Source of the DNA: a virus
Taxonomy: Duplodnaviria; Caudoviricetes
IMG/VR virus record: IMGVR_UViG_3300017722_005389
Strand: one strand, 5' to 3'
DNA: 64,000 nt
Positions 13,794 through 49,003 of this stretch are shown here, one piece after another. The notes under the pieces were generated by a model. The model made no database searches. It was not told the DNA's origin and saw only the letters and a program-made list of their open reading frames with translations. The first letter of the stretch is position 1. Each line of letters starts with the position of its first letter. Made by a program: the position numbers and the translations under genes.

Positions 13794-13869
13794 AAAATTT
13801 CTAAAGAAAAAAAAACGCTTCCTTTTGGAAGCGTTTTGGTTTTTATGAAGAGTGGTTTTTGGCAGCTGT

Positions 13870-14190
13870 TTAAAATCTAAATCTAAATATCCCACTATTA
13901 AAAAGCTTTTTAACCTGTGGATTATATTTATTTGCTGGAGCATTTTTATATTGTGAAAAATCATCTTTGGTTAATTTTCTTCCCATTCGTTTTTCTAAAC
14001 AGTTCATACAAAGAGTATTTGATTCATTACCATATTCACTCCAGATGTCATCATTTACCATATACATATCGTAATCATAAGTACCACAATCCTTACAAGT
14101 GAATCTTTCAATCTCCTCTTGAGGTATATCGGTTTCTTCTTTGATAATTGCTTTTACAATTTGTCTGAGTTCGCTTAATTTGATTTTCAT
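13870..14190 (-). CDS. Leader-bearing Zn-finger protein
   Basis: CKDC...LCMNCLEKRMGR. Confidence 0.75.
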   Translation of the reverse strand: MKIKLSELRQIVKAIIKEETDIPQEEIERFTCKDCGTYDYDMYMVNDDIWSEYGNESNTLCMNCLEKRMGRKLTKDDFSQYKNAPANKYNPQVKKLFNSGIFRFRF

Positions 14191-19285: not shown

Positions 19286-19404
19286 ATTTTTTATAAATAA
19301 ATATTCAATAAATATGATAGCAGTCAAGAATTTATGGGCTGTCCAAAAGAAAAAAAGGGTAATATCCTGAAGACATTACCCTTGGTTAGTTTAAGGTGGA
19401 CAAC

Positions 19405-25011: not shown

Positions 25012-25851
25012 TCAATAAATTTCATCTAAGTCGATTCCGTGAGTTTCATACCACCATTCTTTTGACTTATTAGAATGTTTATCCTTTAATCTGTTATATC
25101 GTTCCAAAATTTTGTTTTGGCGTTCAATTTCATTATTAAAAAACTCATGTTCTAATACTTCTCTACACTTGTATATTTCACGAAGTATTTTACGTAAAAC
25201 ATAACCTTGTTTTAGATTAGAGGGTATATAACCACTTTCTATAATTTTTAGAGCCGTATCTTTGAGTGTTTCAACTTTATCTATTTTTTTACCATTGACA
25301 AACATTTCAAGTCTTTCAAGCCCAAATCCAACATCAATACAATTATCAAGTGGGTTGACAATATTACCAATTTCAATACCATCAACAAAAAATTCTGTAC
25401 AATAACCTCCTATTTCACCATCGCTCCAATGACAGTTTTCATCGTCTACTATTACATCCTCAATGCCCAGTTGATTATAATATCCAAGCCACTCTTTTCT
25501 GTCACTATGAATTGTAACATAATCGGGTGTAATACCTATTTTTTTTAAGAATGTAACCCAAAAGATAATAGTATCTTCAATAGACATCTCTCTGAATGAG
25601 AATAACCCAATCATATTAAAATAGAGCAAATGGGATAAATCGCCTATTTCTTCAAAGTCATTCATTCGAATACAAGCTTGAACATTTGAAACAGTATTTT
25701 TATATTCGCTATCTTTGAATTGACATTTGAATTTTTGCATTCCTGCAGGGCAAAACAAAGTTGTATTGTCATAAGGATTTACTTTGTTTTCAATGCTAAA
25801 GAAGATATTTTTTTCTTCGCAAAATTTTTGGTATTCTTCAATAATATTCAT
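25012..25851 (-). CDS. alaS: Minimal alanyl-tRNA synthetase-like protein (catalytic core only)
   Basis: TLFCPAGMQKFK, QACIR, HLLYFNMIGLFSF, IEIGNIV, IDVGFGLERL, PSNLKQGYVLRKILR; 279 aa, no editing or C-Ala domains. Confidence 0.9.
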   Translation of the reverse strand: MNIIEEYQKFCEEKNIFFSIENKVNPYDNTTLFCPAGMQKFKCQFKDSEYKNTVSNVQACIRMNDFEEIGDLSHLLYFNMIGLFSFREMSIEDTIIFWVTFLKKIGITPDYVTIHSDRKEWLGYYNQLGIEDVIVDDENCHWSDGEIGGYCTEFFVDGIEIGNIVNPLDNCIDVGFGLERLEMFVNGKKIDKVETLKDTALKIIESGYIPSNLKQGYVLRKILREIYKCREVLEHEFFNNEIERQNKILERYNRLKDKHSNKSKEWWYETHGIDLDEIY

Positions 25852-25950: not shown

Positions 25951-26577
25951 TTAAATTCTTCCTCTGAAGTATTTAAGTTCCTCGTTATAGTTTATTTTCT
26001 TTCTAACGAAGTTTAAAATACTTTCCTTTGTAAGTTGCCCACTTGCATCACAAAGTGGATAATTTTGCGTTCTGATGATTTCAGAAGCTGGATATGGGTT
26101 GCCTTGATGATTTATGAATGCTGGCAGAAACGTTGACATTTCCAACCTGATAAAACTATTAAGCTTGACACCAGAAAACTTTTCATTTGCTTCCCAGATT
26201 GTTACAGCTGCTTTGGCTTGTTCAACATAATTCATTTGAAGCAACTCTTCTTTAGAAACCTTTAAAAGTTCTCTTGCGTGATCACCAAACATTATAAGTC
26301 CAGCAAAGCCACCACCATCAGCTTTTGGATCCATACCAGATTCACCCCACATTATAAGCAAACAGAATTTCCAATCCAATTTTCTGGCATCACCAAAAGA
26401 TTTCAATACTTTGACAAACTCTTCCCTTTCAACATCAGGAACCTTGCAAAGCAACTCTTTGACATCTGAGTGTTCAATTTCAATGGGAAGAGGTACCTTT
26501 ATTGAATGCGCATAATTTTTTGGCGCAGCAGCGATCAATGTAATACATAAAAAAATAGAAGTAAAAATTGTTTTCAT
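25951..26577 (-). CDS. Secreted lytic transglycosylase (SLT-like)
   Basis: Signal peptide; IMWGESGMDPKA...GLIMF. Confidence 0.7.
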   Translation of the reverse strand: MKTIFTSIFLCITLIAAAPKNYAHSIKVPLPIEIEHSDVKELLCKVPDVEREEFVKVLKSFGDARKLDWKFCLLIMWGESGMDPKADGGGFAGLIMFGDHARELLKVSKEELLQMNYVEQAKAAVTIWEANEKFSGVKLNSFIRLEMSTFLPAFINHQGNPYPASEIIRTQNYPLCDASGQLTKESILNFVRKKINYNEELKYFRGRI

Positions 26578-26595
26578 AATAAAATTGTTTTAAAT

Positions 26596-26628
26596 AAAAA
26601 AACCCTTGGGCTCACTACTTCCCAAGGG
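26596..26628 (-). terminator. Intrinsic terminator
   Basis: Minus: cccttggg-aagtagtgag-cccaaggg-ttttttt. Confidence 0.8.
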
Positions 26629-26675
26629 CAATTCACTATTAAACTATAAGAACTTTTTCTTTGGGAACTTATGAG

Positions 26676-26828
26676 TTATTCCCAGGAGCATTTTTGTTTT
26701 CGATTGTATTTTTTAGCGTTCTTATGGACTTTTTTAATCGCATAAAACCCATGCGGATGCTTCTCCAGATAGACTTCTCTTGCACCAGAACCGCAAGCTT
26801 TCTCAAGAATTTTATTTGATTTTTTCAT
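26676..26828 (-). CDS. Small basic protein (not in ORF track)
   Basis: MKKSNKILEKACGSGAREVYLEKHPHGFYAIKKVHKNAKKYNRKQKCSWE, 50 aa. Confidence 0.55.
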   Translation of the reverse strand: MKKSNKILEKACGSGAREVYLEKHPHGFYAIKKVHKNAKKYNRKQKCSWE

Positions 26829-26863
26829 AAGTGGCTGTATATCATATTATAAATAGTATCCAA

Positions 26864-27367
26864 CTATATAAAAAGTGTATCACCAACTTTGGTGCCAGAA
26901 AATAATCTGGCTTCAGAAACTATAAATTTTCTAAATTGGGTGCTTTGCATATAGTTAAATCTGATGTCATCTTTTATTTTTGTGAGGGGTCTTCTTGTGT
27001 CCTCTTTAGTAGATTCAGATATTTGTTCTTTGGATTCAAGGAACCCGAACAAGTACAACTTGTCATCCTTCTTTTGTAGTCCAACCCCGATATTTTCATA
27101 AGGGTCCTTCCAATTGGAGTCCTCAGAAGCTTTCTTAGGAAACATAATCTTCTGAAGAATTTCTTGTCTAGCTTCTTCATAAACCTGCTCTTCAAAAGAA
27201 AGGTTTGAAAGTGTATTGATGTCATGTCCAATGCATTCATAGACATTCTTCTTGATATCTATAAGGTATTGTGCTGATTCTCCTTTGGAGTTGGTGTATT
27301 CCATACAGATGCATCTTACATCTTCGGTCAACTCATTCCAGCGATTTGAAACTTCTGTTACTTGCAT
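26864..27367 (-). CDS. Hypothetical protein, paralog of 42629..43282
   Basis: YTNxxGE and DTR..LTK.KD..M.S..FR.F.V shared. Confidence 0.8.
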   Translation of the reverse strand: MQVTEVSNRWNELTEDVRCICMEYTNSKGESAQYLIDIKKNVYECIGHDINTLSNLSFEEQVYEEARQEILQKIMFPKKASEDSNWKDPYENIGVGLQKKDDKLYLFGFLESKEQISESTKEDTRRPLTKIKDDIRFNYMQSTQFRKFIVSEARLFSGTKVGDTLFI

Positions 27368-27480
27368 AATAAATATTTTAATTGCAAATGTACAACTTTA
27401 TTTTTTAAAAAAGAAGGGTTCAAAGGAAAAAATTTTAATTTTCTTAAGAACCCTCCGAAAACTCAAAATTATACTAATAC

Positions 27481-29054: not shown

Positions 29055-29525
29055 TTACCAAGAAGAATGGTATTCAAAAGAAACTTCATAGTCATTCTCA
29101 AAGACACCCTCTATAGCTTCTGAAAGCATTTTTATTGTGTCTGCAACATCTTCGTAATAGTACGCTTTATACTCTGTATCACCGAAGAAGAAACCTGCGT
29201 GTGTGGGCAAATTTTCCTGACTGAAAGCATTATCTTTCTTTTCTAACACTTGCTCACAAAGGGCAATAAGTTTTTTTAGTTGGGTAATGGTTACTTCGTA
29301 AACTCCACAATCATCTTCGCCATCTTGAACGTTATCTACGAACCATTTGTGGATATGGTTTGCTTTGCGCCAGTATGCAGCACTTTCATGAATTTCCGAA
29401 ATCATTTTTGGTTTAATGTTAATGACATTGCCATTAACTTTGATTTCAACAGAAGCTTCAACATTACGGTGGTCATAATGCGCACCGATGTAAATCTTCT
29501 TTGTCAGATACATATCAAGTCCCAT
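29055..29525 (-). CDS. Conserved phage protein (MGLDMYL..YWRKANHIH family)
   Basis: MGLDMYL, YWRKANHIHKWF, LPT..GFFFG. Confidence 0.85.
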   Translation of the reverse strand: MGLDMYLTKKIYIGAHYDHRNVEASVEIKVNGNVINIKPKMISEIHESAAYWRKANHIHKWFVDNVQDGEDDCGVYEVTITQLKKLIALCEQVLEKKDNAFSQENLPTHAGFFFGDTEYKAYYYEDVADTIKMLSEAIEGVFENDYEVSFEYHSSW

Positions 29526-30288: not shown

Positions 30289-30555
30289 TCATACAGTATT
30301 TATTCTTATGAGTTCTGTTTTAATAACAGAAGCAAGGTTATTAAGTTGTAAGACAACATCTAAAGGGTAATATTTATAAACGGCTTCACAAGATAAGGTT
30401 TCAAAAACATCGCCACTATAAATTTTTTCTTCTAATTCGTAATCTGTATCGACATACATTTCTCTCCCCTCTAAGAGTTTAATAACTCCTTCCAACAATA
30501 CATCTTTTGGAATTTCTGTTATTGAAATAACAGAAAAGCTTTCATTGGTAAACAT
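30289..30555 (-). CDS. Hypothetical protein
   Basis: 88-aa cassette gene. Confidence 0.75.
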   Translation of the reverse strand: MFTNESFSVISITEIPKDVLLEGVIKLLEGREMYVDTDYELEEKIYSGDVFETLSCEAVYKYYPLDVVLQLNNLASVIKTELIRINTV

Positions 30556-31830: not shown

Positions 31831-32091
31831 TTATTTTGAAAGAATTAAATTTTTTATAGTCCCACTTCCAATGACATAAACGAATAAATCTTCAATGATC
31901 GTTTCTTCATCGGTCTCTGTCCTATTCAAGAGAATGAAATTGTTATCATCATCTTGATAGATGAAAGTTCCCTCTGTATCGCCATCGCTTTTCACAGACC
32001 AGACTGGGTTTCCTCCCCAGTTTGCTGAAGATCTCTGGACAACTCTTTTATAATGTTTGTCCAAGAACTTCTGTACGTTTTTGTGTAACAT
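31831..32091 (-). CDS. Hypothetical protein
   Basis: 86-aa ORF with leader. Confidence 0.75.
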   Translation of the reverse strand: MLHKNVQKFLDKHYKRVVQRSSANWGGNPVWSVKSDGDTEGTFIYQDDDNNFILLNRTETDEETIIEDLFVYVIGSGTIKNLILSK

Positions 32092-40344: not shown

Positions 40345-40675
40345 TGAATAGTAGTGTTTAAAGTGAATTAAATAATTTACCTTACAAAGGTATACTTTGT
40401 TTTTATATTATTATAATTTTTTTTGCTTTATTTTCAAAAATAAAAAATTTAACTAAATTTATTTTGAAATATCAAATTTCGATTCTGGGGCATTGTTTTT
40501 CCTTAGAAGGTATAAGATGTCCAAATGTCAATAAAATGCTCTCTGAGGGCAAATCTGAGTGTTCTGAATGCATCTGAACGTTCTAATGACATCTGATAAC
40601 CCCAATAAATGATATACTAAAAAATTACCTATAGGCAATAAAAAAACCCCTTTCGGGGTTTCTGTTTTGATAAAT

Positions 40676-41002
40676 TTAATCGTTTTTGAAGATTTTAGAA
40701 AATAATTGGTCAATACCAAATCCTAATACTTGATGTTTTGTACCATTCATTTCAAAATGACATTCAATCTCGATGCCATATATTGTTTTACCTGTACCCA
40801 CACAAACTAATGTATCGCCAAAATCTGCTTTATTTGGAAGATACAATTCATAGCTTTGACTACCATAATAGCCATCGTGATAGGTGTACCCACCCCCACC
40901 AGTTGATAGGGCTAATACTTGCTGGCTGTTACGAATTTTAATTTTTGTTCCATAGTAATTGATATAATAATCAACAGATTTTAAAGATTTTTGCGTTGTC
41001 AT
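40676..41002 (-). CDS. Hypothetical protein (cassette 3)
   Basis: 108-aa ORF. Confidence 0.8.
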   Translation of the reverse strand: MTTQKSLKSVDYYINYYGTKIKIRNSQQVLALSTGGGGYTYHDGYYGSQSYELYLPNKADFGDTLVCVGTGKTIYGIEIECHFEMNGTKHQVLGFGIDQLFSKIFKND

Positions 41003-41319
41003 AATAGTAGTGTTTAAAGTGAATTAAATTATTGACCTTACAAAGGTATACTTTGTTTTTATATTATTATAACTTTTTTTACTTTATTTTCAAAAATAAA
41101 AATTTTAACTAAATTTATTTGGAAATATCAAATTTCGATTCTGGGGCATTATTTTTCTTCAGAAGGTATAAGATGTCCAAATGCCAATAAAATGCTTTCT
41201 GAGGGCAAATCTGAACGTTCTGAAGGCATCTGAACGTTCTGAAGGTATCTGATAACCCCGATGAATGATATACGACAATTTGATATAGGGACAAAAAAAA
41301 TCCCCTTTCGGGGACTTTT

Positions 41320-41619
41320 TTAAAAAAAAGAAATTTCAATTTCTTTTTTTTGTGTTATTAACTCATATCGGCTCTCGCCAACATATTTGCGAGAAACGAT
41401 ATGTTTATTTTTTTGTATGTAAAATGTTCCCTTTATAATTAATACATCGCCCTTTGGCGATGCTTTCCAATGGATAATGTCAGTTACAGTTACTGACACC
41501 ATTGTTATTTGCCTATTATAAGTTATAGGTACAATAATTCTGTCACCTATGGTGTTTGGGCAATAATCGTACGTTAAGTTAGTTAGGCAGTTGTTTCTAA
41601 CAATTGTTACCTTTTTCAT
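41320..41619 (-). CDS. Hypothetical protein (cassette 4)
   Basis: 99-aa ORF. Confidence 0.75.
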   Translation of the reverse strand: MKKVTIVRNNCLTNLTYDYCPNTIGDRIIVPITYNRQITMVSVTVTDIIHWKASPKGDVLIIKGTFYIQKNKHIVSRKYVGESRYELITQKKEIEISFF

Positions 41620-41956
41620 AATAGTAGTGTTTAAAGTGAATTAAATTAATGACCTTACAAAGGTATACTTTATCTTGATATTATTATAATTTTTTTTGCT
41701 TTATTTTCAAAAATAAAAAATTTAACTAAATTTATTTGGAAATATCAAATCTCCATTCTGGGGCATTATTTTTCTTTAGAAGGTATATGACATCCAAAAG
41801 ATAATAAAATGCACTCAGAGGGCAAATCTGAGTGTTCTGAATGCATCTGAGTGTTCTGAATGCATCTGAGTGTTCTGAATGCATCGGATAACCCCAATAA
41901 ATGATATACTAAAAAATTACCTATAGGCAATAAAAAAACCCCTTTCGGGGTTTCTG

Positions 41957-42286
41957 TTATATTGCCCAAACACCACCGCAACCACAATTAGATTCTTCGG
42001 GTTCTTTGCGATTCCCACAATCGCAGTATATCAAATCTTCGTAGGCTTTTTCAGCCTCGAATAATGCACTTTCGGTGGCATAGCCTTTGCGAGAATAACC
42101 ATCCCAACCTTTGAGTTTAGAACTCAATTGCGAGAGGTTTTTTTCCGCTTGTTGCAACTTTGTAAGTTGCGTTGGTTGTGTTGGCATTTTGAACCAATCC
42201 TGCTTTAGCAACCAATCCTGATACCATTTAGGGGTATTAGAAAAATTTTCGCCTTTGTACTTTCCGAATTTAAGAATGAAGTTCAT
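41957..42286 (-). CDS. DUF3820-like N-terminus plus Cys-rich tail (cassette 5)
   Basis: LKFGKYKG....TPKWY.DWL; CDCG..CGCG. Confidence 0.7.
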   Translation of the reverse strand: MNFILKFGKYKGENFSNTPKWYQDWLLKQDWFKMPTQPTQLTKLQQAEKNLSQLSSKLKGWDGYSRKGYATESALFEAEKAYEDLIYCDCGNRKEPEESNCGCGGVWAI

Positions 42287-42628
42287 AATAGTAGTGTTTA
42301 AAGTGAATTAAATTAATGACCTTACAAAGATATACTTTGTTTTTATATTATTATAATTTTTTCTACTTTATTTTCAAAAATAAAAAATTTAACTAAATTT
42401 ATTTGGAAATATCAAATTTCGATTCTGGAGCATTGTTTTTCCTTAGAAGGTATAAGATGTCCAAATGCCAATAAAATGCTTTCTGAGGGCAAATCTGAGC
42501 GTTCTGTAGGCATCTGAGTGTAAATCTGTCCGACATTCAATTGCCCGATAGATAATATGCTACATTGCTTTATGGTATACTAAAAAATGTCCAATGGGCA
42601 AAAAAAAAGCCCCTTTCGGGGCTGTTGG

Positions 42629-43282
42629 TTATTCGTTTACTACAATGGTTTCACCCATTGCTTTCAGCGTATGTATCGCTGAAACTTTGAATTGGCGGAA
42701 TTTACCGCTTTTCATTTTAGACCTTAATATGTCTTTCGCTTTAGTTAATGCATACCTTGTGTCGGTTTTTTCAGTTTCGCTTTCGGTGACTACAACTTTG
42801 TCCCGAACTTGAAACCCGAACACAAAATATTCGTTTGTTGTCGGGTTGAACTTGAACCCATTGTCCAAGATTTCATAGGCAGATTTTTGCCCTTTGCTTC
42901 TGTTGTAGGCTGTTTGAACATCTTTAGCAGTGCAGTTTATGTCAGCTTTAGTGCCAATTCCCGAAAGGAATTGAACAACCAATCCTGCAATATGCGTGAA
43001 ATCTGCATCCGCTTTAAAATGGCGCAAATAATCAGCAATTTTGAATGCTTTTAATAGCTCAACACGAGCCGTTTCAAGCAGCATATCTTTGTCGCTGAAA
43101 TTTAGCGACATAAGATAATTGAAATCGTCAGATTTAGCCTTTTCAAGGCTGTAACCGACATTTATCAGTTGGTTTTGAACTTCGCCAAGTTCATTTGTGT
43201 AGCCATTGATAGCTACAAAACTTGTACCTTTAATTTGGCTTAGTGTAGCCTTAACAGTTTCAAAAGACATTACATTTGTCAT
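42629..43282 (-). CDS. Hypothetical protein (cassette 6), paralog of 26864..27367
   Basis: Shared motifs with 26864. Confidence 0.85.
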   Translation of the reverse strand: MTNVMSFETVKATLSQIKGTSFVAINGYTNELGEVQNQLINVGYSLEKAKSDDFNYLMSLNFSDKDMLLETARVELLKAFKIADYLRHFKADADFTHIAGLVVQFLSGIGTKADINCTAKDVQTAYNRSKGQKSAYEILDNGFKFNPTTNEYFVFGFQVRDKVVVTESETEKTDTRYALTKAKDILRSKMKSGKFRQFKVSAIHTLKAMGETIVVNE

Positions 43283-43545
43283 AATAGTAGTGTTTAAAGT
43301 GAATTAAATAATTGACCTTACAAAGGTCTTATTTTATTTTATATTATTATAATTTTTTCTACTTTATTTTCAAAAATAAAAAATTTAACATAAAAAATTT
43401 GGAAATATCAAATTTCGATTCTGAAGCGTTATTTTTCAAAAGTCAACATAGTGTCCAACTAATGACATAAAATGGCTCAAAACCCGGTTTTTGTGGCTTC
43501 TGAAGGCATATAAGGTTCTTTAGAAAATCAATATTTTTTCTTTAG

Positions 43546-48979: not shown

Positions 48980-49003
48980 GATAAGATATTTATAAATAAA
49001 AAG

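Follow-up and report, generated by a model that had tools for sequence, protein, structure and literature searches.

How might a large lytic phage silence its early genes in a host whose ribosomes are not guided by the Shine-Dalgarno element? What is understood of early-gene shut-off in large lytic phages comes mainly from T4 in E. coli, in which proteins that recognise the Shine-Dalgarno region bring it about. Phages of Bacteroidota tag their early genes with leader motifs of their own, and their host group, to our knowledge, uses no Shine-Dalgarno pairing. The locus considered here brings an RNA into this discussion. Within a stretch of 64,000 nucleotides of DNA (the window) from an uncultured, large Bacteroidota phage, the early-gene leader is found once in reverse, directly in front of a terminator (26596-26860). 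A first-pass annotation took this arrangement for a candidate antisense RNA. From our analysis, such an RNA could pair with early messages and block the access of ribosomes to them, a reading that we give a probability of roughly one in three (0.35); its casting as a 'master silencer' of the early regulon is offered as a hypothesis.

The window is A+T-rich (25-36% G+C), and between about 20 and 44 kb almost every gene lies on the minus strand, with repeated hairpin-promoter-leader units between the genes. These units are of the PeSL (promoter-early stem-loop) kind known from T4-type phages, where they are mobile regulatory cassettes (Arbiol et al., 2010; PMC2839356). The 14-mer AATTCACTATTAAA with up to two mismatches is matched 23 times in the window against 5.1 matches expected, a count that none of 100 shuffles reached, and 18 of the 23 fall in the 20-39 kb part of the minus strand. 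At the level of the 11-mer core TCACTATTAAA (at most one mismatch), about 30 minus-strand genes carry the motif 8-13 nt upstream of the ATG. In most of these leaders a host-type TAnnTTTG box lies 8-37 nt upstream, at no fixed distance, while others have no box; at the internal genes 30881, 31497, 35308 and 20739 the motif comes right after the preceding stop codon, with no promoter and no terminator. Because the distance to the ATG is fixed, the distance to the -7 box varies, and promoterless internal genes have the motif as well, TCACTATTAAA is best read as acting at the RNA level. By its placement it is a start-codon-linked 5'UTR element inside early transcripts, located where a ribosome-binding site would be. 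A second class of five leaders (40356-43292, minus strand) reads TTAATTCACTTTAAACACTACTATT-ATG, with CACTACT 3-5 nt before the start codon.

Late and virion-type genes lack the early leader motif. They have another box, aTATTTATA(a/t)aaaa, 9-14 nt before the ATG, with about 14 gene-proximal copies in the window, and so short a distance implies that late messages would have very short 5'UTRs or none. Such late-type boxes precede ATG codons at, for example, 164, 5496, 6093, 7047, 10161, 11257 and 14932, and further examples are found at 48987, 49948, 53920, 53937, 55759 and 61287. The copies that read TATTTATAAATA are perfect palindromes.

The sole exact copy of AATTCACTATTAAA on the plus strand of the window is at 26630-26643. 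The minus-strand RNA of this element, here called the anti-leader, reads UUUAAUAGUGAAUU and is the exact complement of the early-leader 14-mer. Other plus-strand near-matches (13892, 15012, 25130 and 60205) have 1 mismatch in 11, for which chance suffices, and a self-BLAST of the interval returned no further repeat. The first-pass annotation had described the element as the only clear reversed copy of the leader, complementary to many early mRNAs, and in this it was right: one exact plus-strand copy stands apart from near-matches at chance level, and all 14 positions pair with a motif whose core occurs about 30 times on the minus strand before an ATG. Its proposed extension to about 17 bp also holds, as the leader at 30555 offers a 17-nt pairing with one G-U. 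The anti-leader lies on the transcribed strand between a stop codon and a hairpin, and the claim that a strong terminator directly follows it is confirmed by a gap of 1 nt, a hairpin of -15.6 kcal/mol and a run of seven U residues.

A second inverted near-copy of the leader core was considered at 13892-13902 (plus strand; minus-strand RNA UUUAAUAGUGG). With 1 mismatch, compatible with G-U pairing, it falls in the last codons of a minus-strand gene (14190-13870), and a bidirectional-looking terminator (~13810-13850) follows about 45 nt downstream. Although this arrangement echoes that of 26630-26643, a second anti-leader was rejected here, as 1 mismatch in 11 is at chance level (about 3 expected per strand). 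The gene with a late-type box at 19299 was checked for a like arrangement; it has a terminator and no anti-leader.

As the leader in this copy faces the plus strand, a plus-strand transcript that uses it would make it an inverted relic, as the first-pass annotation had pointed out. Such a transcript finds no support. A plus-strand coding reading (a 52-aa ORF with TTG start or a 24-aa ORF with ATG start) was rejected, with pN/pS of 0.5-2.4, a frame shift in L007 and loss of the ATG in L008 and L009. A pattern scan for the host-type promoter TAnnTTTG on the plus strand found none within 560 nt upstream of the inverted leader, and no terminator-like site was seen on that strand within 2.6 kb downstream, the nearest being at 29250. 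Searches for known relatives of the element were likewise negative: Rfam over 26400-27000 gave two sub-threshold matches at chance level (E 0.34 and 0.45), with no C4 or other family, and the region has no DNA or protein match in the phage GenBank collection.

On the minus strand, the anti-leader is preceded by two small genes. A pattern scan upstream of the first gene found two candidate host-type promoters with a Bacteroidota -7 box (27385..27471, minus): TAATTTTG at 27471-27464, with TTTG in the -33 zone, and TACATTTG at 27392-27385, which the relative L007 has too. Judging from their position, these are likely the start of the unit that ends at the 26596 terminator. The first gene in the ORF list (26864..27367, minus) codes for a protein of 167 aa with 51 homologues and without a Pfam or PHROG match, and it has no TCACTATTAAA leader. 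It is followed by the gene of a 50-aa basic protein (26676..26828, minus), conserved in relatives at 50-54 aa. In a comparison of six sequences, the pN/pS of this ORF is 0.16 in its own frame versus 0.5-2.4 in the other five, so the basic peptide that the first-pass annotation had read from the transcript is the product of a real gene. Gene-calling programs predict it in L007, L008, L009 and L017, and two relatives of intermediate distance, beside P0010 and P0011, have an ORF of 54 aa at the equivalent position. The protein has no Pfam or PHROG match, and a protein-atlas look-up returned unnamed small-protein clusters only.

The 35-nt spacer before the 50-aa ORF contains a box resembling the late promoter, TATTTATAATATG (26843..26855, minus), 21 nt before the ATG. 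With TATTTATAAT at 26855-26846, the spacing is longer than 9-14 nt and the A-run is absent. The box reads TATTTATT in L007, L008 and L017, and the same variant is also found before the homologue of the downstream 208-aa gene in L046. Its function as a late promoter is uncertain, the bare 8-mer being at chance frequency in A+T-rich DNA.

Downstream of the 50-aa gene, the minus-strand 3'UTR begins with a variable stretch, continues with an 18-nt block (26667-26650) and, after a linker that also varies, reaches the anti-leader (26643-26630) and the hairpin. The last of these is an intrinsic terminator (26596..26629, minus) that begins 1 nt past the anti-leader and runs from GCCCUUGGG through a 10-nt loop (AAGUAGUGAG) to CCCAAGGGU and U7 (26629-26596), with a GC-rich stem of 9 bp. 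A consensus terminator scan missed it, as its loop limit was 8 nt versus the 10 nt of this loop. The first-pass annotation had also pointed to the loop, whose AGUAGUG complements CACUACU of the second leader class. This complementarity is real for the five leaders at 40.3-43.3 kb and is not conserved in relatives: across the window and its relatives the loop reads AAGUAGUGAG, AGAUAGUGAG, ..GAC or ..GAA, and UAGUGA alone is constant. In L008 and L017 an A-to-G change in the 3' arm retains a G-U pair.

The 18-nt block UUCCCAAAGAAAAAGUUC (26650..26667, minus) is unchanged in seven sequences of close relatives and absent in a distant group. Its UUCCCAA can pair with UUGGGAA of the terminator 5' arm. 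When the 3'UTR is folded in isolation, this alternative fold has the minimum free energy (MFE; -18.8 kcal/mol); once the flanks are extended slightly, the MFE structure is the terminator form. The alternative helix shows no covariation in relatives. The block resembles the CAAAAGAAAGTT arms of PeSL hairpins; from this likeness and its pairing, it could represent the decayed remnant of a PeSL arm, or else an anti-terminator. A direct comparison with PeSL cassettes was otherwise negative: between 26577 and 27384 there is no minus-strand TAnnTTTG, the hairpin is unrelated to PeSL arms of the CAAAAGAAA type, and the leader is inverted.

The close relatives (class 1) comprise three IMG/VR contigs, four Logan contigs and one JGI contig, with 208-aa homologues 70-92% identical to that of the window, and all of them retain the 167-aa gene, the small ORF, the anti-leader, the hairpin and the 208-aa gene. 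The 12-nt core UUUAAUAGUGAA is invariant in the seven distinct class-1 sequences, with indels directly on either flank, and this answers the first-pass annotation's question of seed conservation. About 12 of the ~49 columns between the stop codon and the hairpin are variable in these seven sequences, and the 18-mer and the 12-mer are the two blocks without variation; a given block of 12 columns would escape every variable column with p ~0.02, and the pS of the neighbouring ORF across the seven is 0.17. The reversed ATG is lost in L008 and L009, in which the core UUUAAUAGUGAA stays.

The distant group (class 2: L010-L016, L022, L045 and L047) has 208-aa homologues 50-62% identical to that of the window. 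These loci lack the 50-aa ORF; another gene, encoding ~114 aa and equipped with an early PeSL promoter of its own, stands upstream. The carrier units of both groups have no leader motif at their own starts. Nevertheless, the class-2 3'UTR carries UUUUUUUAGUGAAUAAUUUU, with the complement AAATTATTCACTAAAAAAA; the class-2 leaders, TCAAATTATTCAC[T/A]AA at 15-16 nt before the ATG, match the complement of this inverted copy (AAATTATTCACTAAAAA). It is followed by a homologous hairpin, with a predicted stem of 12 bp and U8, and, 14 nt upstream of the 208-aa homologue's ATG, by a canonical TATTTATA box. Between CCCTTGGG/CCCAAGGG of the window and CCCCTGAA/TTCAGGGG of the distant group, the hairpin arms differ by three double changes that keep the pairing. 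The contig to which L022 belongs spans 125 kb; it contains three forward copies of the exact 11-mer, and the element described here is its single reverse copy. Since both groups keep an inverted copy before the terminator of the same gene despite replaced surroundings, the sequences point to selection or active homogenisation of the element rather than chance.

What the two groups say about the seed itself is less clear-cut. Each group's element scores 2-3 bits better on its own leader matrix than on that of the other group, a covariation of leader and anti-leader that is weak because the leader consensus is nearly identical in both. The class-2 intergenic module, loop and promoter included, is ~95% identical as against 65% for the flanking protein, and conservation is thus not specific to the seed; in class 1 the module is 99% identical versus 91% (aa) for the flanking gene. 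In part, the cause of this conservation may be that the regulatory module is mobile or homogenised, and not that the seed is under selection. Of two other loci with the downstream gene, L046 (56%) has the terminator and a TATTTATT box with no clear anti-leader, and in L018 (49%) the whole arrangement is absent. A separate observation concerns the class-2 contig L014, where a non-coding stretch of ~200 nt between two PeSL promoters (2125-2340) has a tRNA-like start (GGTCAGGTGGCGGAATGGTAGACGC...). ARAGORN found no tRNA in it; the stretch may be an insertion-bearing tRNA or a structured RNA of another kind.

The gene behind the terminator is shared by both groups. Its ATG lies 20 nt past the terminator (25951..26577, minus), and the 208-aa product has an N-terminal hydrophobic, signal-like helix and a predicted lytic-transglycosylase-like fold. 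The gene has no early leader. In class 1, no promoter of its own can be recognised, and the single late-type box in the vicinity is that before the 50-aa ORF; in class 2 the 208-aa gene has its own box. The residues E79-S80 are invariant in the family, and the AlphaFold model is good (pLDDT 82). The top Foldseek matches are all lytic transglycosylases (9udh, MltF, phiKZ gp144, Slt70 and MltE), with weak scores (best E 1.9e-3); 9udh, a phage enzyme, aligns with a TM-score of 0.69 by target. A PDB sequence search with the family profile gave no match, and Pfam detected nothing. The modelled fold suggests that the protein may be a secreted enzyme of the endolysin type embedded in the early region, in which case the terminator would insulate the gene of a secreted cell-wall-degrading enzyme from early transcription. 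Directly downstream, at 25012-25851 (minus), lies a stand-alone catalytic fragment of alanyl-tRNA synthetase (279 aa; Pfam tRNA-synt_2c, E 1e-20). This region does not align in the closest relatives L001-L003, and the fragment looks like a cassette specific to this phage.

The pairing that the anti-leader would have to make was then compared with what chance provides. In windows from -40 to +6 of 61 early starts, the 34-nt segment before the terminator is predicted to form a duplex of -12 kcal/mol or better with 32, as against 3.6 for shuffles and 4.5 for random native 34-mers. At -14 kcal/mol or better, 19 early start windows remain versus 1-2 in the controls. This prediction against the early leaders had been proposed in the first-pass annotation, and the enrichment (32 of 61 against about 4 in the controls) bears out its expectation. 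The strongest predicted duplexes, at -18.2 to -18.7 kcal/mol, are those with the genes that start at 32091, 32675 and 30555; overall, the predicted duplexes are A/U-rich with 12-17 bp. In predicted folds the seed is only moderately accessible (mean unpaired probability 0.42-0.45), with its 5' half open and its 3' half paired in the alternative structure; the class-2 seed is mostly open.

The mechanism that we favor would start from the interval as the tail of a small minus-strand unit made up of the 167-aa gene, the 50-aa gene, the 3'UTR and the terminator. The RNA would end at the hairpin, and either the terminated RNA or a 3' fragment protected by the hairpin would accumulate. Its UUUAAUAGUGAA(UU) would pair in vivo with many early messages, in the region from -24 to -10. 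Because the host group does without Shine-Dalgarno pairing, occupation of this region would hinder ribosome loading, and the early messages would be dampened. Late messages would escape, since their TATTTATA box lies only 9-14 nt before the ATG and the motif is absent. Such an RNA would take the role of an RNA counterpart of the general shut-off of early messages in T4 by RegB and RegA. We robustly infer that one and the same cell transcribes both partners, the leaders of the early messages and the anti-leader at the 3' end of a message from the same strand. The class-2 carrier starts at an early promoter, and the anti-leader would there be made alongside about 30 leader species; the stoichiometry would be unfavourable unless the 3' fragment were much stabler. 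An extended version, which we consider a long shot, would make this a late RNA of dual function: driven by the TATTTATA-type box at 26855, it would encode the 50-aa protein, shut off about 30 early messages and gate read-through into the gene of the cell-wall enzyme.

No known system matches this proposal in every part, and several share some of it. Mechanistically, phage antisense RNAs such as c4 of P1 appear, by analogy, to be the closest. The c4 antisense RNA from the immI region of phages P1 and P7 blocks a message of its own phage at the ribosome-binding region (Citron and Schuster, 1990, as cited in PMC8198154). The likeness is that of a phage RNA pairing in trans with the ribosome-binding region of its own phage's message, which is here proposed. 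The c4 RNA is a dedicated, processed RNA with a fold of its own and one target operon in the immunity circuit of a temperate phage. The candidate discussed here, in contrast, belongs to a T4-like phage of the virulent type and forms the 3'UTR of an mRNA that codes for a protein; its target motif precedes about 30 genes, and Rfam gave no match for it.

Another comparison is with sRNAs derived from 3'UTRs. In CpxQ, SroC and DapZ of enterobacteria, the seed lies directly upstream of the intrinsic terminator of an mRNA, and these RNAs act with Hfq or ProQ. The elements in common are a coding gene, a conserved seed and a terminator hairpin that would protect a 3' fragment. The difference lies in the partner, as CpxQ, SroC and DapZ use Hfq or ProQ in Proteobacteria; we know of no Hfq in Bacteroidota. 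In function, the closer comparison is with T4, where the endoribonuclease RegB and the translational repressor RegA inactivate early messages and the RegB site is GGAG in initiation regions (PMC3014915). In our case, too, early messages are proposed to be generally inactivated by way of a short sequence that their initiation regions have in common. However, RegB and RegA are proteins, whereas we propose an RNA, and the common sequence here is not a Shine-Dalgarno element. Lastly, the PeSL cassettes resemble the locus in its surrounding repeated terminator-promoter-leader units, in a module that is more conserved than its flanking genes and in the change of gene content at its edge. They differ in that the unit at 26596 has an unlike, GC-rich hairpin, no host-type promoter and a reversed leader.

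The likeness to PeSL cassettes leads to a different account of the same facts, namely that the anti-leader is a functionless leftover of a reversed leader-ATG cassette junction, kept by recombination or gene conversion with the ~30 sense copies or carried along in a spreading module. In both groups the inverted copy resembles a whole leader up to a reversed ATG abutting the upstream stop codon; in class 2, TCAC and this ATG are separated by the canonical 23 nt, and in class 1 the distance is canonical once the 18-nt block is subtracted. The upstream genes of the two groups differ exactly up to this junction, and L046 and L018 do without the element. In both classes, the module is more conserved than its flanks (99% vs 91% aa and ~95% vs 65% aa), and intergenic regions that are more conserved than flanking genes are the hallmark of mobile regulatory cassettes of T4-type phages (PMC2839356). 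A module of terminator and promoter could accordingly spread between co-infecting phages as PeSL cassettes do. Yet a neutral copy should have decayed over the split of the groups, during which three of eight hairpin pairs changed, half of the loop became different and the ATG spacer was replaced. The variable positions and indels of class 1 flank the 12-mer and none falls inside it, and the core outlives the reversed ATG in L008 and L009. Moreover, gene conversion between inverted repeats of 12-30 nt would be expected to be inefficient and to carry a risk of inversion. With these points on its two sides, a functionless leftover is in our judgment somewhat unlikely.

Two further accounts keep a function for the element and place it elsewhere. 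In one of them, TCACTATTAAA is also, or instead, a signal in the DNA, for example a middle-type promoter or a protein site, and the inverted copy would act on the plus strand, either through a cis-antisense transcript against the upstream genes or through convergent transcription that keeps early polymerases off the cell-wall-enzyme gene. Spacing from the ATG is similar for TCACTATTAAA (8-13 nt) and for the late box TATTTATA (9-14 nt), presumably a promoter; the element sits where insulation of a lytic-transglycosylase-like gene would matter, and conservation independent of orientation fits a DNA site. However, the motif is also found at internal genes after stop codons and shortly downstream of complete host-type promoters, for which a translation signal fits better, and behind the inverted copy the plus strand has neither a conserved ORF nor, within 2.6 kb, a terminator-like site. 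We therefore regard a DNA signal as improbable. The remaining account is a cis attenuator of the 208-aa gene in class 1, in which UUCCCAAAGAAAAAGUUC and the anti-leader would form an anti-terminator helix with the terminator 5' arm, and either a ribosome at the stop codon of the 50-aa gene, 8 nt upstream, or a leader RNA on the loop would decide between termination and read-through. Class 1 has no recognisable promoter between the terminator and the 208-aa gene, and read-through is thus needed there, whereas class 2 has a late box and lacks the 18-nt block; the invariance of this block and the MFE fold of the isolated 3'UTR are in keeping with such a switch. The sub-threshold resemblance to the His leader model (E 0.45) carries no evidential weight. 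Against an attenuator, covariation is absent, the outer stem CUCAU:GUGAG is broken in L007, L008 and L009, slightly longer flanks favor the terminator form, and the class-2 inverted leader copy is left unexplained; this account, too, is improbable in our estimate.

Should the anti-leader RNA act on the early messages as we propose, an RNA with an exact complement of the leader would be a simple off-switch for a whole regulon, and its existence would be an indirect sign that the leader must be single-stranded to work. If the dual-function version were true, an RNA would stand in for RegB and RegA in this phage, whose host does without Shine-Dalgarno pairing. Even if the element were a mere cassette scar, it would mark a precise boundary of gene exchange beside an insulated gene of the lysis type.
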